A stretch of 62,680 nt of DNA, the filler included, from Porpidia crustulata (lineage: Eukaryota): the NCBI GenBank assembly GCA_964255105.1. It is 23 parts of 23 records of this genome, joined end to end, with 100 filler letters (N's around TTAATTAATTAA, not from the genome) between each part and the next. Parts side by side here need not be neighbours in the genome. Positions count along the whole stretch, not along the records: positions 8,387 to 11,072 come from CAXUWE010002404.1; 22 more parts are not named here. One strand, written 5' to 3'. The notes below the pieces were generated by a model that saw only the letters and a program-made list of their open reading frames with translations, was not told the origin of the DNA and made no database searches. Shown here in pieces: positions 661 through 41,282 of this stretch (positions are counted from its first letter, which is position 1; every line of letters begins with the position of its first letter). A program made the position numbers and the translations under genes.

Positions 661-1434
661 AATAGTAGTGTGTATTTTGCTTGTCATTTTAAACGCTGCA
701 TTTGAGTTTAGTCATTTGAGAAGGTACATAGATTGAGTACAATTCACAAAGTTTCAGATATTCCATCAACTCGACCACGCATAGTATCGTTGCAGCGCTT
801 GACTTTCGACGTCTTCCTCTTCTAAGAACTGTGCTTCAGATTCAGTAATAAGCTGCACGCTCCTTTATAATCTAAGGTTAATCTCCCATAGCCATTGCCT
901 TAATATCAACATATCCATATCTCGGTCCCATGCCACATCAATGCTACAACTCCTCAACAATTCCCCTTCATAAACTCACCCTCTTCGTCCTACATGTAGT
1001 CTATTCCCAGCAACCAATAAAAGGTATAGACGATCTAAGAAACGTTTTTGGTGTGGAATTCATGTTGTATACGTTTCGTGTTCTAGATAGGCTGGCTAGC
1101 TCGCGCAGACCCTAATCATTGTAGTAGAACACATGTGCGTTATATCGTGATAGTCAACAAGCTTACTATTCAACGAGCAAACGATATGGAGGACGCCAGG
1201 GTATCTGAGATGGAAGGCTGACGGATTCCAAACGAGCTTAAAGCGAAGGGCCTCCATAATTGCTAGGCACGCTAGGCAGCGTTTTAGGCTAGCTCTAGGG
1301 GCCGCCCGCTATCGATAGGCTTGAACTTCAATAGGCGAGGCGTCCTCGGCGGAGGATCTTGAATTTTAAGAGTGGGCGGATTTGTTACCATTCAAAAAAT
1401 TCAAAGGCAGGTTCTTGCGCAGTCTACTGTGAAA

Positions 1435-6112: not shown

Positions 6113-7822
6113 ATGGCCCAAAATACTACTTCGTATGTCGATGTACTCATATGTGGAGGTGGCCCGGTGGGTCTCCTTCTCTCGTATCAATTAGCCCGTA
6201 TGGGTATCAAAACCTGCGTCCTCGAGCAGTATGACAAAAGCACTCAAGGCATGTACGGCCGAGCCTGTGTCCTTTATCCTCGCACACTGGAGATGCTCGA
6301 CCAGCTGGACCTGTCCGAAGCTTTGACGCAGATTGGCTTCATCGGTCGCAGCGCCGTGACGTACCACGATGGTAAGAGAGTCCACGGCAGGGGTTGGGGC
6401 TTCATCAGCAAACCTCTCGACAGCTTCTTCGACTATTGCCTGAACATACGACAAAAATATTCAGAGCATGTATTTCGCGATGCAGCTGAGCAGCTCGGAA
6501 GCATCATTTATAGCAACACGAAGCTGGTTGGCTTCACAATGAATGATGGACAGGATGATTACAAAATCACAGCGAATTTGCAAGGGGAAGGCGAGACACC
6601 AACGACGGTGCAAAGCAAGTATATTATTGGAGCTGACGGAGGCCATTCCACGGTTCGGAGCATCGCAGGCATCCCCTTTAATGGCGACAACGTCAAAGTG
6701 GAATCGATACTGCACTGGATCCGCATGGATGCTCTTGTCAAGACGAATATGTCAGATGCACGTATAGGCTTCGGATCCATTGAATCACCGCGGCACGGGA
6801 ATGTTTTGTGGGTTGCGATAGATCACGGTCGTACAAGAATTGGGTTTGCCATACCGACTGAAGTATACGAGAAGTACGGTGAGAACATCAGTGAAGATGT
6901 AGTGACGGAAGAGGCTATAAAGGCTCTAGCTCCTTTTAAGCTCGAATTTGTCTCTGTGGATTGGTGGACCCTCTACTCCATAGGCCACCGAGTTGCCGAT
7001 AGCTTTCGTAGTAAAGATCGCATCTTCCTGGCCGGCGACGCGGGCCATACACACTCCTCCGGCGCTGCTCAGGGCATGAACACCGGCATGCACGATGCCG
7101 TGAACCTTGGCTGGAAAATCAGTGGCGTCCTCAAAGGCTGGTATACCGATTCTGTGCTGGAGACTTACTCAACGGAACGCCGAGCAATAGCGAAGGAATT
7201 GATTGCGCTAGACAAGACCATGTCCACGCTCATTTCCGGCACGATGGCGCCTGGCTATAGCGGCGACACCAACAAGGCCCTTGGAGACGTCTTAGAATCC
7301 TCAGCACAGTTCACCACGGGCTTGGGCGTACACTACGATGCCAATACCCTCAACAGCGACTCCTCAGTCTCGGCCATCCAGCCGGGTTGGCGGGTGCCCG
7401 ATGTCCTGGTGCGTCGACCCGGTTTCAAGATCCCCATGCGCTTACATCAAGCCACAAAGAATCACGGCAAGCTTTGGATCGTGGTCTTCACCGGCACGCC
7501 CTTCCGTACGATGTCCAAGCTTAGAGCCTTACGCGAATATCTAGACGGCCCGCGGAGCTTCACAACGCATTTGACGGAGGCCTTCAACTTTATCACTATC
7601 ATCGCTGGCCCTGGGTTGCAGGCTGACGAAATTCTCGGCGTAGAGCGTTTCGGAGATGCGTTCTACGACGTGGACGAGTCGGCGCACGTTCGTTATGGTG
7701 TTGGGGTGGGCGAAGGCGCTGTGCTTGTTCTGCGGCCGGATGGCATCATGGGGTTCGCTGCTGGCTTGCACGAAGGTCCTAAGCTGGCGGAATACCTAGA
7801 GACTTTTGTCACTCGGAAATAG
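6113..7822 (+). CDS. FAD-dependent aromatic monooxygenase (phenol 2-monooxygenase-like), intronless
   Basis: GGGPVG Rossmann motif, IIGADGGHSTVR (DG motif), RIFLAGDAGHTHSSGAAQGMNTGMHDA (GD motif), C-terminal VLRPDG. 569 aa. Confidence 0.92.
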   Translation: MAQNTTSYVDVLICGGGPVGLLLSYQLARMGIKTCVLEQYDKSTQGMYGRACVLYPRTLEMLDQLDLSEALTQIGFIGRSAVTYHDGKRVHGRGWGFISKPLDSFFDYCLNIRQKYSEHVFRDAAEQLGSIIYSNTKLVGFTMNDGQDDYKITANLQGEGETPTTVQSKYIIGADGGHSTVRSIAGIPFNGDNVKVESILHWIRMDALVKTNMSDARIGFGSIESPRHGNVLWVAIDHGRTRIGFAIPTEVYEKYGENISEDVVTEEAIKALAPFKLEFVSVDWWTLYSIGHRVADSFRSKDRIFLAGDAGHTHSSGAAQGMNTGMHDAVNLGWKISGVLKGWYTDSVLETYSTERRAIAKELIALDKTMSTLISGTMAPGYSGDTNKALGDVLESSAQFTTGLGVHYDANTLNSDSSVSAIQPGWRVPDVLVRRPGFKIPMRLHQATKNHGKLWIVVFTGTPFRTMSKLRALREYLDGPRSFTTHLTEAFNFITIIAGPGLQADEILGVERFGDAFYDVDESAHVRYGVGVGEGAVLVLRPDGIMGFAAGLHEGPKLAEYLETFVTRK

Positions 7823-8790
7823 TAGAAGCGGGAGCCTTGACATCCGAGCGTAGGATCATGATAGATGCATGTTACTCGCATTGGGGGCCAATAGAGCAGC
7901 GGATAGATTGCAATGAGATTGACTGGTTCTATATCAGTTTTAAATCCTACTTGGACATTCTCCCTTGCGTGACTTGTGCTAGATTTCGCCTATTCTAAAG
8001 CCTTGTACTAGCTTGAGTAAAAGCGGCTGCTCTACACGAGCGCATTCAGCTCCGGGGAGCAAAATGGTTTCGGAGGGATGAGGATGTGAGATTTCATCCC
8101 CAGACTTCATCTTCAGGCTTCATAGCAGAATACTCTTCGATGGTTGTACAAGTACCATACTAACAAGAATTTTCTTCGAAACGTTCAGGTTCTCAACATT
8201 TAGACTACGACGATTCGTAGTCCGTCTAGGAGATGCAAATGTCCCGCTTAGATCTCGATGCCGCTGTCTCCCTCCCTCCCCTCTTCNNNNNNNNNNNNNN
8301 NNNNNNNNNNNNNNNNNNNNNNNNNNNNNNTTAATTAATTAANNNNNNNNNNNNNNNNNNNNNNNNNNNNNNNNNNNNNNNNNNNNGAAGAAGGAGGCTT
8401 TGAGAAGAGTCACTGCCTGGTACCATGGGGAGTAGAATCGATACTCGGTTGATTATTCAATGGTGGGACGGAATATCAAAACTAGATCCGGCAAATAGAG
8501 TGGAACCGATGCCCAAAATGGCCAAGAGAAGATACTCGTATGGACCGCGATGATTGAGTGCGAGAGCCAAAGAGAGCAAGGAAATAGAGCATGTATTTGG
8601 GATCGTGAGGCTGAAATCTAGAGAATTACAATCGATTGGAGGAGAATCAATTACTTCTGTTAGGTAACAGATCATTGCTGAAGTTCTTTGAGAAATGGTC
8701 ATGAAAGGATGTGTATTGAGACTCTTATAAAATTAACGATGGGATCCTACAAATTGGATGAGCGCTTCTCAATCTAAGATCGAAATCTGC

Positions 8791-8795
8791 AAAAA
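8791..8795 (-). terminator. RNA polymerase III oligo-T terminator of the tRNA gene
   Basis: TTTTT starts two bases after the discriminator base on the minus strand. Confidence 0.75.
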
Positions 8796-8816
8796 GGGGC
8801 TCAACCGGGATTTGAA

Positions 8817-8870
8817 CTGCTAGTTGTTAGAGTTTTGGGGGAAAAGGTGAGGTCGCTGGATATGACTCAC
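8817..8870 (-). other. Spliceosomal-type GT-AG intron (54 nt) inserted between G53 and T54 of the tRNA T-arm
   Basis: 5' GTGAGT, pyrimidine tract CCTTTTCCCCC, branch site CTAAC (8830-8826), 3' CAG. Exact excision restores CCGGG-TTCAAAT-CCCGG. Confidence 0.85.
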
Positions 8871-8886
8871 CCCGGGGCCTGTCACA

Positions 8887-8920
8887 AATCAGAATGTCTG
8901 GAGACATCCAGGCCGTACAA
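8887..8920 (-). other. Canonical tRNA intron at position 37/38 (34 nt)
   Basis: Begins one base 3' of the anticodon. U32 can pair with the antepenultimate intron A (A-I pair). Internal hairpin CTGGA-TGTC-TCCAG. Confidence 0.88.
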
Positions 8921-9120
8921 CCCGAAGCGACAATCATACCACTAGACCATTGAGCCAGAATATCGTAATGTTGCTATTATAGTTAATAAATCTGTATAAT
9001 CCTTTCGCATCATACGTCTTCGATCCCGGCATACCCCGCAACTTTGTTGAGAAGTGCCTACAAAACCACGGAGGACTCTTTTACCATTATCAATGTATTC
9101 CTGTTCTATTTCTATAGGAG

Positions 9121-10316
9121 ATGGAAGCTTATGCAATAAATTATGGAGTTTCGACTGAAAACCCACCATTTCCCGATGATGTTCTAAATGCACCTCTCCT
9201 CCGATTATCTCTCGAGAAGCTGCTTGAGGATGATCCACAGGAATCAACACGCTTCTTTCAAGCATGTAAAGACCTAGGCTTCTTCTATCTCGACCTACAA
9301 GGCACCTCGGTTGGCGAGTCTATCCTTAACGATGCCGACAAGCTCTTCGACATTGGAGAACAGCTGTTTGAATTGGAGGAAAGTGAGAAGCAGAAATACG
9401 ACTTCAGTGCACAGCAATCATATTACGGGTATGGACTCTTTGATCAAAAAGCTCTAGAAGCATGACTCTCAGACTGCCGATATCAGTTACAAAGGGTATG
9501 GCAAGTCTATCATCGACAGATCCGGTACTTTGGATCGCAACGAGTTCTACAGTGTCAGCCGCTCTTCCCTACCCAATCTGATGTCTAGCTGCTCAATGCT
9601 CATCCTAGATATCCAAAGATGACATTCTCTCGGTTTCTCCACCCCTACCCGCCCCTAGACTCCTTCAACGTACCCGCGATGTTCAGGTCTCCTATACTCA
9701 CGCTGCCCACTCCATCGTTCGTCATCTCCTCGGTCACCTAGAAGCTCATCTGCACCTGAAGCCGTCCGCCCTGTCATCCCTGCACCGCCTTGCGGCCCCT
9801 TCAGGCGACCAGATCCGATTTGTCAAAGCACCTCCGCAACCCCGAGAGGATCGTCGTACCGCACTGGGCGAGCACACCGATTTCGGTAGTATTACCATCT
9901 TGTTCAACCGGCTTGGAGGCCTTCAGGTGCTACCTCCCGGTGAAGACGCACAGTGGTGCTATGTTCGCCCTTTACCAGGCCATGCTATTGTGAACCTGGG
10001 CGATGCGATGGTCAAATTCACAAACGGATTGTTGCGGTCGAACATACATCGTGTGGTGTCCCCACCCGGTGCACAGGCTGAGCGCACGCGATACAGTGTG
10101 GTTTATTTTTCGAGGCCGGAAGACGAGGTTATACTGAAGAGATTGGAGGGCAGCAACGTGATACCGGAATTGCGAGAAGGGGAGCAGGATGAAGAGGTCA
10201 GCAGCAAAGACTGGATTACAAGGCGAGCGATGACGAAGAGAACGATGATATACAAACAAGGGGATTGGGAGAAGACGACAGGAACGGAAAGGCCAGTTAC
10301 GAAGAGCAGAATATAA
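9121..10316 (+). CDS. 2-oxoglutarate/Fe(II)-dependent oxygenase; introns 9429-9486, 9554-9608
   Basis: ACKDLGFFYL (DIOX_N-like), spliced YYG|YKGYG and DRNEFYS|ISKDDI, HTDFGSITILFNRLGGLQ, NLGDAM, SNIHRV, RYS. Confidence 0.92.
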
Positions 10317-11966: not shown

Positions 11967-13109
11967 TCATAACTTCTCCACCTCCTCTAACTTCGCAATC
12001 TCTAGCACTGCCTTCCCGAAATTCTCCCCCTTCAACATACCCAGGAAGCCCTCGACGCCCTTGTCGATGCCCTCGGTCACGCTCTGCTGGGCCTTGAAGC
12101 TACCCTCGGCGATCCACTTGGCAACGTTCTTCTGATGGTCGGCCGTGTACTTGGGGCCCATGTTAGCGTCAAAGACGATGAAGCCGCGCATGGTAAGCCG
12201 CTTCCTGATGAACATCGTCATGTTCTTCACGCCGTACACATCCGAGGGCGAGGCGTTATTGTATTGAGAGATCATGCCGCAGGCGACTGCGAGGAGGTTA
12301 GTGCTCGTGGGGAGGTAGATGGGAAGCATAAAAAGGGGAAAGGGGGGTTGCGGACTTATTCGGCCGTAGTCGCTCATTGCGGCTAGGGCGTGATCGAGTT
12401 GCTCCCCGCCAACATTTTCATAGTAGATGTCAATGCCATTTGGCGCGAGTCTCTTCAACGCGTCCGCAGGCTTCTCTGTCTTGTAATTGAAGCCTTTGTC
12501 GAAGCCGAGCTCTTTCTGGATGAATTCGAGTTTCTCGTCGCTTCCTACGCTGCCAATGACCGTGAGGCCCTCGTGCTTCGCTAGTTGGCCCACGATCTGA
12601 CCTACAGCACCGCTGGCTGCGGACACAAGTATCGTTTCGCCCTTCTTGGGTTTGCCGATGTCGTAAAAAGAGGAGTAAGCTGTCAGACCTGGCATTCCTA
12701 GTGCGCCAAGGTAGAATTTCGGGTCGAGATGGTAGGGATTTTCAAGTTTGCGGAAATAATCGTTCGTGACCGATCCTGGAATTGACGAGAATTCCTCCGT
12801 CGGCATCATTCCCACTACCAGATCTCCTTCCTTGAACTTCTCATTATCAGATTTGAGCACTTTTGCCACCCCAGTGTTAGTGATGGGTTTGCCCAGCTCG
12901 AAGGGTTGATTGTAGCTTTTTACTTCGGTGCCTCGCATGCGGCCTCGTTGATAGGGGTCGAATGAGATCGAGTAATTTCTGGTGGTTATGCCGTCTTTCG
13001 GAGGGGGGGCACTGGTGTCGAAATCTCTACCTTCAACCACGAGGTCCTCGCCTGGGACAGGCCATCCGTTTGGGATTGACTTGAAGATGACACCCTTGTT
13101 TTGGACCAT
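11967..13109 (-). CDS. NADPH-dependent MDR oxidoreductase (prostaglandin reductase/allyl-alcohol dehydrogenase type); intron 12287-12355
   Basis: SFDPYQRGRM, LGALGMPGLTAY, VSAASGAVGQIVGQLAK, GIDIYYENVGG, spliced GRIIACGMISQYN, GENFGK. Confidence 0.93.
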   Translation of the reverse strand: MVQNKGVIFKSIPNGWPVPGEDLVVEGRDFDTSAPPPKDGITTRNYSISFDPYQRGRMRGTEVKSYNQPFELGKPITNTGVAKVLKSDNEKFKEGDLVVGMMPTEEFSSIPGSVTNDYFRKLENPYHLDPKFYLGALGMPGLTAYSSFYDIGKPKKGETILVSAASGAVGQIVGQLAKHEGLTVIGSVGSDEKLEFIQKELGFDKGFNYKTEKPADALKRLAPNGIDIYYENVGGEQLDHALAAMSDYGRISPQPPFPLFMLPIYLPTSTNLLAVACGMISQYNNASPSDVYGVKNMTMFIRKRLTMRGFIVFDANMGPKYTADHQKNVAKWIAEGSFKAQQSVTEGIDKGVEGFLGMLKGENFGKAVLEIAKLEEVEKL

Positions 13110-14575
13110 GATTGTGATTGAGGGTGAAGTAGTAATCGTTAAGATTTGGAGCTGGTTTGACTGAGGGGTAAAACAGAAATACGTAAGATGGAGAACGTAA
13201 GCCGATATTACAGTTTATGAAATGAGTAGATGGAATAGGTATGAATTTTGAGATGAACGGAAAGTTGCTGATAGATCACAACAATTTAAAAGAGAGCTCT
13301 CTAGATACTCTTGACGATACAGGCCATTACGTCATTTCCATCAAGCCGCTTTCGCACCGCATAGAGTCTGAAAGGTTCATTGCTGTAGCACGGGCATGAA
13401 AGCCCCTTCTGGAAGTTCTTCCACTCATGCTGATAAAGCATCAGGGGGTCCTTGACTTAAGACAGGCGGTAAAGCGGTTGAGTCACCATTGTTGGGATAT
13501 ACTCGGCTGGACCTTCGATTGCAACGGACGATCGAAGACAAGACACCAAAAGATGCCGAGGCTCATGTGGTGGAGGATGGTGTAGATAGATGGTGAGTAC
13601 GCAAGTCCGATCCAAGGGAAAATCAAGATTAATCAACAATCAACTGTGAACAGTCGAATAAGATTTGTAAACTAATCCTTCAACTATTATTGTGGGGTGA
13701 ATTGGAGGGGTGGATTTGAGGGTGAATGTTAAGCTTGTGAGCTTTATCGATTTCCCTGTGATCGATATGGACTGCCGTAATTACTACGGTATCCGGGCGG
13801 AATGTTGTTAGTACATGGCGTTTGGCCATACCATATTAGTTATAGTTTATTGGTGNNNNNNNNNNNNNNNNNNNNNNNNNNNNNNNNNNNNNNNNNNNNT
13901 TAATTAATTAANNNNNNNNNNNNNNNNNNNNNNNNNNNNNNNNNNNNNNNNNNNNGAGTTTAAAGGGCGGGTTATGGAGCCTGGAGTGGACATTTTGAAG
14001 GAAGAAGGTGGATTGACGATGAAATGGCGCCGGGGTGTTCATGAGAGAGCGGTGGCCGTGGATTTGTTGAAGGTGGACATGAGGCTTTCCCAACAAGGCG
14101 TAGATGGAGTAGTTTTTGTGGAGGTGCGGACGCGTCATACTTCCACAGACCTGAACGCTGTCTTACGTCGCATATTGATTCAAGTCAGTCATTAGTCGTT
14201 TCAAGGTATTGACTGTCATCCCTCAAGATTTATTCGACAGTCAGAGTTTCAGAGGCGCTACCCAAAGTTGTAGCTTTTTAGGAGAATATGTGCATGCTCG
14301 GTGTGGAGGTGAGAACGCGTCTAATGTGATCTCTCAACTCGAGTATCTATCAAATTTTAGCGTCTGAAGTCGGAAATCGATCTATAAGACAGTCTAGAGT
14401 GTTACGGGTGATGCTGTATAGGCGACTACTATTTAAAATACTGTCCAGAGAAAGTTATCAAAAAAAATTAAAATTGCTCTTGATGCTGCAGCATGCTTAT
14501 ATCAATTTAATTGTAACATATCTAATCCTGAGATTAAAGCTATACATGTCATTTGTCTCTAAATTGAAAATCTCA

Positions 14576-23570: not shown

Positions 23571-24633
23571 ATGGCTTCAATCTGTAGGCTGAGGCCATTG
23601 GCCTTTAGGCTCCCCTCGACCTTACTGCCGCAAGTGGTCCGGCCATACTCTGCATCTGCTTCGTCCTATGAGACTCTGCTGGTGTCCTCGCCAAAGCCAG
23701 GCGTTGGTCTTAGTATGGCTCCTGACTTCCTCATTCTCCTCGTACACTCAAGTTTCGTGTACATACGCTGACGTAACAGTCATCCATCAGTCACGCTCAA
23801 TCGTCCCAAAGCCTACAACGCCCTGTCGTCGGCAGTCTTCCTTGAGTTGAACGATGCCCTGCGGAAGTTTGATGATGACAAGGACACTGGCGCCATTGTG
23901 CTTACTGGGAGCGAGAAAGCCTTTGCAGGTACGAATTCAAAGGAATCTCACGTGGTATTGGTCTGCTGATACCGTAACCTCACCATAGCGGGCGCGGACA
24001 TTAAAGAGATGAAAGATCTCACATTCAGCCAAGCGTACAATACCAACTTTATCGCACTGTGGTCCTCTACTATCCCCAATATTTGTAAACCTATCATTGC
24101 GGCAGTCAACGGCTTCGCCTTGGGCGGTGGATGCGAATTAGCCATGATGGCCGACATAATCTACTGCTCATCCTCCGCAACTTTCGGCCAGCCAGAAATC
24201 TCTCTTGGAATCATCCCCGGGGCAGGCGGTAGCCAAAGGCTGACGAGAGCCGTCGGCAAGAGCCGAGCGATGGAGCTCATACTAACGGGGAAGAAATTCT
24301 CCGGTAAAGAAGCCGTCGAGTGGGGGCTAGCGTCCAAGCTTTTCGAGACCGCGGAAGACTGCAAGGAGGGAGCATTGGCAACGGCGGAGCAGATTACAGG
24401 GCTTTCAACCGTTGCTGTGAGTGCGGCGAAGGAGGTGGTCAACAAGAGCCAAGAACTGGGATTGAGGGACGGGCTGGATTACGAAAGGAAAGTCTTCCAT
24501 AGCCTGTTTGGAAGTAAGGATCAGAAAATTGGTGAGTTTTGACGATACATCGACAGCGTTTCGTTGCTGACTGGAAGTCTCAGGGATGACCGCGTTCGTG
24601 GAGAAAAAGAAGCCCGCGTGGGCGAATGAGTAG
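23571..24633 (+). CDS. Mitochondrial enoyl-CoA hydratase; introns 23713-23790, 23929-23988, 24532-24583
   Basis: Arg/Ser-rich presequence, ITLNRPKAYNAL, KAFAAGADIKEM, AVNGFALGGGCELAM, FGQPEISLGIIPGAGGSQRL, GMTAFVEKK. Divergent from RER1 across about 290 bp. Confidence 0.95.
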
Positions 24634-25999: not shown

Positions 26000-27143
26000 A
26001 TGTCCAAGCTTCTCGTTGTTGTGGGTGTCACAGGACAGCAGGTGAGGATTCATCACACTCGCAATTACCTCAATTGAGATATTTGCAGGGTGGTTCCGTT
26101 GCCGACGTATATGCCAATGAGCCAGGCTGGAAAGTACGAGGCATCACCCGAAACCCGAGCAAAGCCGCAGACTTGACGGCAAAAGGTATCGAAGCTGTCA
26201 AAGGAGATCTAAATGACAAGGAGTCTCTTGTCGCTGCCTTTGCAGGAGCGAATGCCATCTTTACCACCACCGATCCCTGGACCTTGTTCTTCGATCCGGT
26301 CACCCAAGAAAAGTTAAAGCCGGGCCAAACGCTGAATGAATATTGCTACGACGTCGAGGTTCAACAAGGCAAGAATGTCGCCGATGTTGCCGCTTCTGTC
26401 AAAGGCTTGGATCGTTTCATAGTGTCTGCTTTGTGTGACGTAAAAAAGTGGAGTGGAGGCAAGTATGCTTCGGTCTATCATTTCGACAGCAAGGCGAAGA
26501 TTGTCGAATACATCAGAGATGAATACCCGGAGTTGGCGGAGAAGATGTCAATCGTTCAATTGGGCGGGTACATGAACAACTGGAAAATGGGCGCGAAGCC
26601 AACAAAGGTAAACCCAACATATTTGGACTCCCGAAGTATGCTGATGATGTCCTGCAGCAAGCTGATGGCACATACCGCTTAACCGGCGTCGGCTCCGGCC
26701 ACAACCCCCTCACCCACTTCCATCCCTCGAGGGACACCGGATACGTAGTCCGCGCGGCCCTCCAAGCCCCGCCAGGAAAGAACATCCTCGCCGCCGGAAG
26801 CACGCTCTCCTGGTGCGAATATCTCCAGATCTGGTGCCACGCCAACAAAGTCCCCTACGGCGGGTACGACGAGCTTCCCATCGAGACGTTTGAGCGGAAC
26901 ATGCCTATACCGGGACTAGGCAAGGAGTATGGAGAGATGTTTCGGTTTATCGATGAGTTTGGGTATGCGGGCGGTGATCGAAGCGTGGTTCGCGTGCAGG
27001 ATGTAGGTTGAGTTTTTGAGAGTTTTTTTTTTGGACTTGGGATGGAGCTGATCGATGTGCTGTAGCTTGGGGTTCCGTGCCCGTTGACTACGTGGGAAGA
27101 GTATGTTAAGTTGGAGGACTGGTCTAGTATTCTCAGCACATGA
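26000..27143 (+). CDS. NmrA-like NAD(P)-binding protein; introns 26042-26088, 26608-26657, 27003-27065
   Basis: Spliced VVVGVTGQQGGSVA, VRGITRNPS, EVQQGKNVAD, HFDSKA, DTGYVV, FGYAGGD, LTTWEEYVKLEDWS. Confidence 0.9.
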
Positions 27144-40571: not shown

Positions 40572-41282
40572 ATGGTGAACGTAATACGGCGCATGAGGAA
40601 GCTCAAAGCTGTAAGCCCCACCCCCAAACCACCCTACTACGAATCCTCGCTGACGCACACGCACAGAAAGTACGTTTACCCACAAACAATCAAAAAAGTC
40701 AACACTATCCAACCTCCCTAACCCCCTCTCCCTCCCATCTAGCTCCTCGACATCCGCCTTGGCCCCGGCGCCGCCATCCTCCCCCCATCCGTAACAAAAA
40801 TCCACCTCGACTGCGCCGTCAAAAACTACTACGGCCACTCCGGCGCCCGCAAATTCTGGCGCCTCTGCCTCCCCCGCCTCAAATACCACAACCCGGCCGT
40901 GTCGATGCTCGTGACCCGGCCGCGCACGTACGGCGGACCGGCGACGCTGACGATTTTCTTCGACGATGCGGGATCCGGCGGCAACGCGACGACCGCCGCG
41001 TCTGGTTCTGCGTCGGCGGATCCGACGGTGGACCCGGGGTTCAAGGGCAGGACGGCGGTTGTCGATATGCTGAATCAGACGGAGTCGGAGATTCTGAGGC
41101 AGGTGGTGGAGTTGACGGGGGCGACGGCGGTGACGGCAACGAAGGAGGAGCAGGCGGAGATTCGGGAGTTGGAGGCGCAGGGGAAGAGGAGTGAGCTGGA
41201 TATGGCGAGGACGGCGAGGATGAATGAGCAGAGGAAGCAGGAGAAGGCGTTGTTGGAGCAGGCGAGGGGGGTGATGGCGTGA
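40572..41282 (+). CDS. MRP49: Mitochondrial ribosomal protein Mrp49/mL61 (L51/S25/CI-B8 domain); exons 40572-40610, 40667-40669 (3 nt), 40743-41282
   Basis: MVNVIRRMRKLKA-K-LLDIRLGPGAAILP, GHSGARKFWRLCLPRLKYHNPAV. Two short introns, each with its own donor, branch site and acceptor. Confidence 0.85.

Follow-up and report, generated by a model that had tools for sequence, protein, structure and literature searches.

The DNA analysed here is a stretch of 62,680 nucleotides from Porpidia crustulata (assembly GCA_964255105.1), made of 23 parts of this genome joined end to end and referred to below as the window. On its minus strand, positions 8956-8797 hold a complete tRNA-Pro(CGG) gene, in three exon pieces and two introns (Table 1). 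One intron is at the canonical place for a tRNA, between positions 37 and 38. The other, which is the subject of this work, lies in the T arm, between G53 and T54, and is a GT-AG intron of the spliceosomal type. An earlier note, made from the sequence alone, had described a tRNA-Pro(CGG) gene split at G53/T54 by 54 nt, and every coordinate that it gave is correct.

Table 1. The tRNA-Pro(CGG) gene, its T-arm intron and those of related genes, its transcription features, and candidate mRNA introns of the window
Feature	Positions	Strand	Length or motif	Remarks
Exon 1, tRNA positions 1-37	8956-8921	minus	36 nt	acceptor 5' strand, D arm, anticodon stem 5' strand, CGG, G37
Canonical intron at 37/38	8920-8887	minus	34 nt	ARAGORN i(37,34)
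Exon 2, positions 38-53 (T38 to G53)	8886-8871	minus	16 nt	anticodon stem 3' strand, variable loop, T-stem CCGGG
GT-AG spliceosomal-type intron, G53/T54	8870-8817	minus	54 nt	GTGAGT, CTAAC, branch A 10 nt from 3' end, CAG; same-site inserts in L001, L002, L003
Exon 3, positions 54-73	8816-8797	minus	20 nt	T loop TTCAAAT, CCCGG, acceptor TTGAGCC, discriminator C
5' splice site	8870-8865	minus	GTGAGT	all four genes fit GTRNGT
Pyrimidine tract	8847-8837	minus	CCTTTTCCCCC	includes T4 run; T4 also in T-arm introns of L003 and L001
Branch-site motif	8830-8826	minus	CTAAC	putative branch A 8827, 10 nt from last intron base
Tandem acceptor	TAG 8822-8820, CAG 8819-8817	minus	TAG-CAG	CAG alone restores the tRNA
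T-arm intron of L003			52 nt	GTGAGT, CTAAT, branch A 10 nt from 3' end, CAG
T-arm intron of L001	676-620 of L001	minus	57 nt	GTAGGT, CTGAT, branch A 13 nt from 3' end, TAG; phase shifted one base
T-arm intron of L002			52 nt	GTACGT, CTAAT, branch A 11 nt from 3' end, AAG
TATA-like element	8974-8982	minus	CTATAATAG	-26 to -18 from tRNA position 1
A box	8939-8949	minus	TGGTCTAGTGG	tRNA positions 8-18; invariant in window, L003 and L001
B box in DNA	8808-8818	minus	AGTTCAAATCC	last two intron bases and T loop
T5 run, putative RNA polymerase III terminator	8795-8791	minus	T5	1 nt (C) after discriminator
mRNA intron candidate	12355-12287	minus	69 nt	
mRNA intron candidate	50664-50617	minus	48 nt	
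mRNA intron candidate	22675-22593	minus	83 nt	
mRNA intron candidate	24532-24583	plus	52 nt	
mRNA intron candidate	40670-40742	plus	73 nt	
mRNA intron candidate	26608-26657	plus	50 nt	
mRNA intron candidate	9429-9486	plus	58 nt	

In its intact form the gene is not seen by gene finders. ARAGORN called no tRNA in the window, with intron mode on or off, and Rfam reported no tRNA in it at the gathering score. Over 8700-9050 there was no tRNA at E<=10 either, the sole row being a chance rivX match (E 2.8). Deletion of 8870-8817 led ARAGORN to call a tRNA-Pro(cgg) with the intron i(37,34), and deletion of both introns yielded a tRNA-Pro(cgg) of 73 nt in which the four stems are all present. With the insert gone, the predicted exon junction is ...CCCCGGG joined to UUCAAAUCC, the 5-bp T stem and the 7-nt TTCAAAT loop are restored as the earlier note had proposed, and a full tRNA is called. 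The expectation of that note that a tRNA would be called only when 8817-8870 was taken out was borne out with ARAGORN, and its expectation that finders would miss genes of this kind with ARAGORN and Rfam.

To define the boundaries, ARAGORN was run on 13 shifted 54-nt deletions and on 13 deletion lengths. A tRNA was still called for six of the 13 shifts (-3 to +2) and for two of the 13 lengths (53 and 54), so that ARAGORN is too tolerant to fix the boundary. It is fixed by the uninterrupted gene of a close relative, called organism B below, which aligns down to 8871 and continues directly with TTCAAATCCCGGTTGAGCCCC, followed by GAC and TTTTT, with no insert. The insert is therefore exactly 8870-8817, save for one base of phase: a G precedes it and a G ends it, and GT..AG is one of the two possible phases.

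Inside these boundaries, the signals that the earlier note had read, a GTGAGT donor, a pyrimidine tract, CTAAC and a CAG acceptor, stand where it had placed them. How often such an arrangement arises by chance was estimated with 3,000,000 random 54-mers of the window composition, placed at the 53/54 site. Phasing as GT..AG was obtained for 0.8% of them, and GTRNGT together with CTRAY 9-25 nt from the end and HAG for 25 (8.3e-6). The motif GTRAGT..CTRAC..YAG alone is not rare, as it occurs 4 times in the window versus 2.9 +/- 1.6 times in simulations. The improbable part is the exact registration of the composite motif on the tRNA boundaries.

A possible hairpin was noted at the donor. In the window (8872-8846, minus strand) GGTGAG, made of two exon-terminal Gs and the beginning of the donor, is complementary to a CTCACC some 14 nt downstream, and in locus L003, described below (609-633), the partner of GGTGAG would be TTCACC, one of the pairs being G-U. 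Both hairpins are drawn by RNAfold. It would mask the 5' splice site; as it has no counterpart in L001 and L002, it may reflect shared ancestry only.

Metagenome contigs were scanned with a pattern that fixed exon letters only (10 in exon 2, 19 in exon 3), the N{40,70} between them being free. Three loci were obtained (L001, L002 and L003), and all three are tRNA-Pro(CGG) genes with an intron at 37/38 and an insert of 52-57 nt at 53/54. The earlier note had suggested a search for tRNA halves separated by GT..CTRAC..YAG; the pattern used here was neutral about the letters of the insert, and all three further genes phase as GT..AG. The same pattern had 0 matches in genome_contigs and 0 in viral_contigs, as expected of prokaryotic and viral collections. 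None of the four intact genes was found by ARAGORN, and all four were found once the T-arm insert was removed. For L002, removal of this insert alone led ARAGORN to move the remaining intron and to name the gene Ser(cga), whereas removal of both introns gave Pro(cgg). No second case of a tRNA split in its T arm was found in the window and the loci: of 46 combinations whose T stem and acceptor stem were compatible, none but the four Pro genes had GT-AG.

Each of the four T-arm introns contains exactly one CTRAY, and these motifs share one alignment block. Downstream of the branch motif, the introns of L001, L002 and L003 have a single AG each. Orthologous inserts devoid of splice signals, the opposite case raised by the earlier note, were not encountered: GT, CTRAY and AG are kept in all four genes.

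These signals were compared with those of mRNA introns in other fungi. Papers given by PMC number are cited here from excerpts, to which our statements on them refer. In Fusarium, introns measure 42-529 nt with a median of 57, CTRAY is found in 91% and YAG in about 94% of them, and the donor profile is G100 T99 A74 A42 G93 T66 (PMC5677156). In Neurospora, 96% of introns have their CTRAY 9-25 nt upstream of the 3' splice site, U2 is perfectly matched by CTAAC, and several hundred introns have an AAG acceptor (PMC4408805). AAG, the acceptor of L002, is a minority acceptor in both genera (PMC4408805, PMC5677156). The donor, branch and acceptor of the four introns sit inside these published Pezizomycotina norms. 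Together with gene content, intron style and a Fox2-like C-terminus in L001, described below, such agreement suggests a Pezizomycotina-like fungus.

The window itself offers a second comparison, with seven mRNA intron candidates (Table 1). These were hand-picked among candidates that join long open reading frames and whose removal leaves the frame open, with 15-452 codons on either side, and the choice was partly led by signals; a filter based on the joining of open frames gave 12 rows, and one based on codon usage 78 noisy groups. In six of the seven, CTRAY lies 11-21 nt from the end, and all seven end in YAG. The earlier note had given 47-85 nt for mRNA introns of the window, which is roughly what we see (48-83 nt), with the reservation that these seven were chosen partly by their signals. 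Beside them, the T-arm intron is an example of textbook strength.

Locus L003 is a syntenic orthologue of the window gene. Between 26 and 303 it corresponds to window 9431-9154, which is the first exon of a divergently oriented 2OG-Fe(II) oxygenase gene, with 75% nucleotide identity and 78% amino acid identity over 92 residues, and the distance and orientation of the tRNA relative to the oxygenase are unchanged. Compared with the window gene, L003 is identical at 72/72 exon positions, 23/34 positions of the canonical intron, 38/54 of the T-arm intron, and 8/19 and 8/18 of the flanks (about 45%). The corresponding values are 72/72, 22/34 and 30/57 for L001, and 67/72, 16/34 and 26/54 for L002, with flanks about half identical in both. 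Because the pattern fixed the last 10 nt of exon 2 and 19 of the 20 nt of exon 3, only 43 exon letters were free to vary: 43/43 are conserved in L003, 43/43 in L001 and 38/43 in L002. Exon 1 is conserved at 36/36, 36/36 and 33/36 positions, respectively, and the free first 6 nt of exon 2 are identical in L003 and L001, and compensatorily changed in L002. Four of the five changes in L002 form two compensatory pairs of the anticodon stem (28-42 from U-A to C-G, and 29-41 from C-G to U-A), and the fifth falls in the D loop. With the four genes taken together, pairing holds in 95.2% of 84 stem cells, versus 24-46% when partners are slid by 1-3 columns. Exon 3 is also identical in organism B, which was found independently of the scan pattern.

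A tRNA pseudogene was rejected on these figures, the exon identities being opposed to 48-70% in introns and about 45% in flanks, with stems paired. A dead gene, in which a recent and fortuitous insertion of intron-like DNA would have knocked out a tRNA-Pro(CGG) copy, has a few points in its favour: the intact gene is not called by finders, organism B manages without the insert, and some yeasts can do without this tRNA. An insertion in the T arm of a eukaryotic tRNA gene is, moreover, usually taken as the sign of a pseudogene (PMC4090602). We regard it nevertheless as highly improbable, since the insert is common to L003, whose flanks and introns have fallen to 45-70% identity with all exon letters kept, since L002 has compensatory stem changes, and since splice signals persist in four of four genes with interiors diverged beyond alignment. 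Every exon base is kept in L003 while introns are at about 70% and flanks unalignable, hence the gene was not disabled in the common ancestor. The interrupted gene is therefore under purifying selection as a tRNA, and the insert has to leave the RNA. In this respect too the earlier note, which had argued for a live gene rather than a decaying pseudogene, agrees with what we find, namely exons that are invariant or compensated and introns and flanks that diverge.

The interiors of the T-arm introns are less uniform. Those of the window and L003 can be aligned (z 5.5), and those of the window and L001 cannot (z -0.3), although splice signals persist in both. The canonical introns of window and L001 are homologous (z 4.4). 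For L001 and L002, unalignable interiors may reflect either fast intron evolution, or replacement or re-gain of an intron at the same site. Since the T-arm interiors of L001 and L002 are unalignable with the window while the canonical intron of L001 is alignable, the site may have been hit more than once, for instance through reverse splicing, with the exposed T loop of an abundant tRNA as its target. Site 53/54 may also be tolerated or favoured, as the terminal AG of the intron rebuilds G53 of the B box.

Which machinery could remove the insert was examined through the signals that each would need. For the tRNA splicing endonuclease, the bulge-helix-bulge (BHB) geometry was taken as two 3-nt bulges around a 4-bp helix. 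In the four genes, two phases and two arrangements, the central helix reached 0-3 and the outer helix 0-2 of the 4 pairs needed in each, and BHB was rejected. Minimum-free-energy folds either left the intron as a large loop enclosed by the T stem or paired the intron with itself, and contained no BHB. Group I introns are recognised by a U before the 5' splice site, a terminal G and a P1-P9 core. A group I intron was likewise rejected: a length of 52-57 nt leaves no room for the core, and the upstream exon ends with G in all four genes and in both phases.

A real intron removed without the spliceosome, by the tRNA endonuclease acting on a relaxed BHB-like fold or by some other nuclease-ligase route, would have the advantage that this pre-tRNA already needs the endonuclease for its 37/38 intron. 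Non-canonical introns are known, at 53/54 in archaea and in the T arms of nucleomorphs and Cyanidioschyzon merolae (PMC4090602). In none of the four genes, however, are the splice sites in 3-nt bulges around a 4-bp helix, and a conserved GT, a CTRAY at 10-13 nt and an AG carry no meaning for an endonuclease, which makes this route improbable.

The conserved letters of the insert are GT, CTRAY and AG, and with BHB and group I failing, no known machinery other than the spliceosome has its signals present and conserved here. An intron of the spliceosomal type in a tRNA gene, with the spliceosome removing it, is thus the best-supported mechanism, and we hold it to be quite probable. In such a scheme the gene would most likely be transcribed by RNA polymerase III (Pol III), and a U2-type spliceosome would excise the 54-nt intron between G53 and U54, using GUGAGU, CUAAC, the pyrimidine tract and CAG. 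The 5-bp T stem and the 7-nt UUCAAAU loop would form only after this step. RNase P, RNase Z, the tRNA splicing endonuclease and ligase acting on the 34-nt intron, and CCA addition would then follow, possibly in this order. The polymerase, the cutting machinery and the sequence of steps in this scheme are deduced from the DNA.

Several features point to Pol III. The TATA-like element CTATAATAG has a nearly identical counterpart in L003, ATAAATAG at -25..-18 (about 500-507), in a spacer which is otherwise unalignable; the BLAST alignment of window and L003 extends to 22 nt upstream of the gene. Upstream of L001 and L002, at about -27..-16, the sequence is A/T-rich (...ATTAG and ...AATAAG). We infer that the TATA-like element is an upstream promoter element for Pol III. 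The A box and the B box of tRNA genes are found at positions 8-19 and 52-62, respectively (PMC3978253). Although the T-arm intron splits the B box, AGTTCAAATCC matches 10 of the 11 letters of the spliced form GGTTCAAATCC, the last G of the intron restoring G53. The same AGTTCAAATCC is read across the junction in L002 and L003, and GGTTCAAATCC in L001. A B box would therefore survive in the DNA, the terminal AG of the intron replacing positions 52-53, and could be bound by TFIIIC. The distance from the end of the A box to the start of the B box is 120 nt, versus 32 nt in a gene with neither intron, and yeast TFIIIC tolerates a spacing of such size. A run of at least 5 T follows within about 25 nt of the discriminator in four of four genes. 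The earlier note had described the A box and the T5 terminator as undamaged, and both read intact. As far as sequence tells, the gene has the layout of a type 2 Pol III tRNA gene, with A box, B box across the junction and oligo-T.

One could also imagine that the intron belongs to a Pol II precursor, such as a longer non-coding or read-through RNA, spliced during its transcription, from which RNase P and RNase Z would then release the tRNA. Coupling to Pol II is the normal situation for splicing, the T4 run in the intron is no obstacle to this polymerase, and the tRNA-Pro of organism B was found in a 2,399-nt contig from poly(A) RNA, possibly through DNA carry-over. Yet all four genes have the Pol III layout (A box, near-intact B box, TATA-like element near -25, and at least 5 T), the window and L003 are unalignable outside about -25..+25, and the U6 of Schizosaccharomyces pombe is a spliced Pol III transcript (PMC5855946). 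We consider a Pol II precursor unlikely.

Returning to a spliceosomal intron in a Pol III transcript, it is likely that such an intron is maintained in the T arm of this nuclear, Pol III-type tRNA gene in several fungal lineages, and that maturation of the tRNA needs both the spliceosome and the tRNA endonuclease.

Organism B is represented by contigs of a DNA run (X3) and a poly(A) RNA run (X19) and, together with a lichen metagenome (X11), these align with 8957-8871. Its exons are identical to those of the window, and its canonical intron is homologous and diverged: in the aligned contigs all 11 substitutions and 5 indels fall within 8889-8918. The T-arm intron would have been either lost precisely in organism B, or gained after the two lineages split. 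The X19 contig comes from a poly(A) metatranscriptome (2,399 nt, depth 168) and holds the organism B tRNA-Pro(CGG) with its canonical intron retained. It could be DNA carry-over or a long read-through transcript, and is no evidence on the window locus.

An assembly or sequencing artefact was considered in view of the distribution of the stretch among sequencing runs. There are 22 runs listed as sharing sequence with it, and the whole stretch is present in one only, X1, which is perhaps its source. In X1, a read-built contig of 2,658 nt, at depth 9.6, spans 8700-9060 with 0 differences, so that the insert is covered by a read-derived contig, as the raw-read check suggested by the earlier note called for. 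A scaffolding error is ruled out by this contig; as X1 is perhaps the sample from which the stretch itself came, it would then not be independent biology. With three unrelated metagenome contigs carrying an insert at the same site, we attach almost no weight to an artefact. The X1 contig is the single one of this run on the stretch, and is unbroken through the 36-nt exon 1. This hints at one gene copy, though contigs cannot prove the absence of others. Runs sharing words of the tRNA exon include lichen metagenomes, and the 19 runs with small shares (0.06-0.08) reflect the conserved tRNA exon rather than the locus, and have no bearing on habitat.

A number of points weigh against removal of the insert by the spliceosome. 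Pol III transcripts lack the cap and the coupling to Pol II that aid splicing, and we know of no precedent for a spliced Pol III transcript other than U6. The tRNA-Pro(CGG) itself may be dispensable, as it is absent from Saccharomyces cerevisiae. The T arm of organism B is uninterrupted, so that the intron is dispensable and its distribution patchy, and an intron-free tRNA-Pro(CGG) copy elsewhere in the same genome is conceivable. No junction read, lariat or mature tRNA was seen, the only run with the locus (X1) being probably source DNA; splice joints were absent from the four runs aligned to the stretch, of which the RNA run, X19, represents organism B, whose gene has no T-arm intron. The scan demanded 29 exact exon letters, by which decayed copies are missed, and an insert, by which uninterrupted genes are left uncounted. 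The TTTT inside the T-arm intron could stop part of Pol III transcription; the canonical intron of L003 starts with T4, which indicates that these tRNA genes tolerate such a run. Finally, the TAG located 3 nt before the CAG is a competing acceptor, whose use would add 3 bases to the T loop. It is only 7 nt from the branch A, under the range of 9-25 nt given in PMC4408805, and CAG is for this reason the likelier acceptor.

Introner-like or mobile spliceosomal introns of fungi and algae could explain how an intron landed in so unusual a host. No further copy of the insert was found in the 62.7-kb window, where the best non-self BLAST match was 14 nt.

The nearest analogue in mechanism would be the intron of fungal U6. 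Like it, the T-arm intron is a short GT-AG intron in the gene of a small structured non-coding RNA, and Pol III, which makes U6, would transcribe this gene as well. A reverse-splicing origin has been proposed for the U6 intron, and the U6 RNA cannot work until the spliceosome has removed this intron, as we propose for the tRNA here. Unlike U6, the host is a tRNA and not a component of the spliceosome, so that the argument of reverse splicing "near the active site" is inapplicable; the tRNA gene also has a second intron, of another class, and splicing of U6 is experimental while ours is read from sequence. In S. pombe, the U6 RNA is a Pol III transcript that the spliceosome splices (Tani and Ohshima 1989, 1991; PMC5855946). 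The excerpt of this 2018 review lists U6, U2, U5 and U1 small nuclear RNAs and rRNA as non-coding hosts of spliceosomal introns, tRNA not being among them (PMC5855946); the U6 and rRNA precedents that the earlier note had invoked agree with it. In the full-text literature, a coverage from which most subscription journals are missing, we met with no tRNA gene described as carrying a spliceosomal intron.

A second relative is found in ribosomal DNA. Bhattacharya and colleagues are said to have reported in 2000 spliceosomal introns in the rDNA of ascomycetes, many of them lichen-forming (cited in PMC5855946). These resemble the T-arm intron by their non-coding host gene, not transcribed by Pol II, by their presence in Pezizomycotina, by their GT, branch and AG, and by a distribution that is patchy and conserved in position; they differ in that Pol I is the polymerase and rRNA the host.

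Among tRNA introns, those of eukaryotes are placed between N37 and N38, and none at 53/54, in the excerpt of PMC10275265. The exceptions given for T-arm insertions in that of PMC4090602 are nucleomorphs and C. merolae, where BHB motifs matter, 53/54 being an archaeal site. Endonuclease-removed introns of archaea, C. merolae and the nucleomorphs of cryptophytes and chlorarachniophytes likewise lie outside 37/38, sometimes in the T arm (PMC4090602, PMC3978253), sometimes beside a canonical intron, and are missed by standard eukaryotic finders, as here. Unlike ours, they have BHB or relaxed BHB motifs and no GT, branch and AG; in our gene the reverse is true. The canonical 37/38 intron is present in the same gene (8920-8887), and is homologous in L003, L001 and organism B; the T-arm intron differs from it by its place at 53/54 and its mRNA-type signals. 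As for finders, the search for non-canonical introns in tRNAscan-SE 2.0 is described for the archaeal mode only, in the excerpt of PMC8450103.

In reviews, spliceosomal introns and tRNA introns form two distinct classes, each with hosts of its own. If the proposed reading is true, the spliceosome would have a new class of substrate, and a second natural spliced Pol III transcript would be added to the first. The gene would also be a natural system for intron gain in structured RNAs, opposing reverse splicing to DNA insertion, would show how TFIIIC handles a split B box, and could tie tRNA supply to splicing capacity. As ARAGORN and Rfam are blind to such genes, fungal genomes may wrongly seem to be without tRNA-Pro(CGG). 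More genes of this kind may be missing from fungal tRNA sets, for which eukaryotic finders are not looking. We hypothesise that a hidden class of such tRNA genes exists; our search covered tRNA-Pro(CGG) only.

At intervals of about 2,750 bases, the window contains two N runs of 44 bases each, spaced by 12 bases (for example 8287-8330 and 8343-8386); the runs number 44 and comprise 1,936 N. They resemble deliberate masking rather than assembly gaps; several open reading frames are broken by them, and intron finding is hampered.

Around the tRNA gene, coding sequences were identified by eye from their translations. On the plus strand, 6113-7822 is a FAD-dependent monooxygenase-like open reading frame, and about 9154-10316 is the 2OG-Fe(II) oxygenase-like gene, with at least 2 introns, divergent from the tRNA and starting about 200 nt away. 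On the minus strand, 11967-13214 encodes a medium-chain dehydrogenase. The mRNA intron candidate at 12355-12287 (minus strand), GTCCGC...ACTAAC...CAG, is in frame and free of stops, inside a gene resembling zinc-type alcohol dehydrogenases. A naive open frame across it carries 23 spurious residues, and its removal gives ...GRIIACGMISQYN. In L001, an open frame at 1049-1285 (minus strand) ends with ...GKLCIAGAGAELMDGGKAAKL and resembles, by eye, the C-terminus of a Fox2-like peroxisomal hydratase/dehydrogenase with its AKL signal, an ending which fits a fungal contig.

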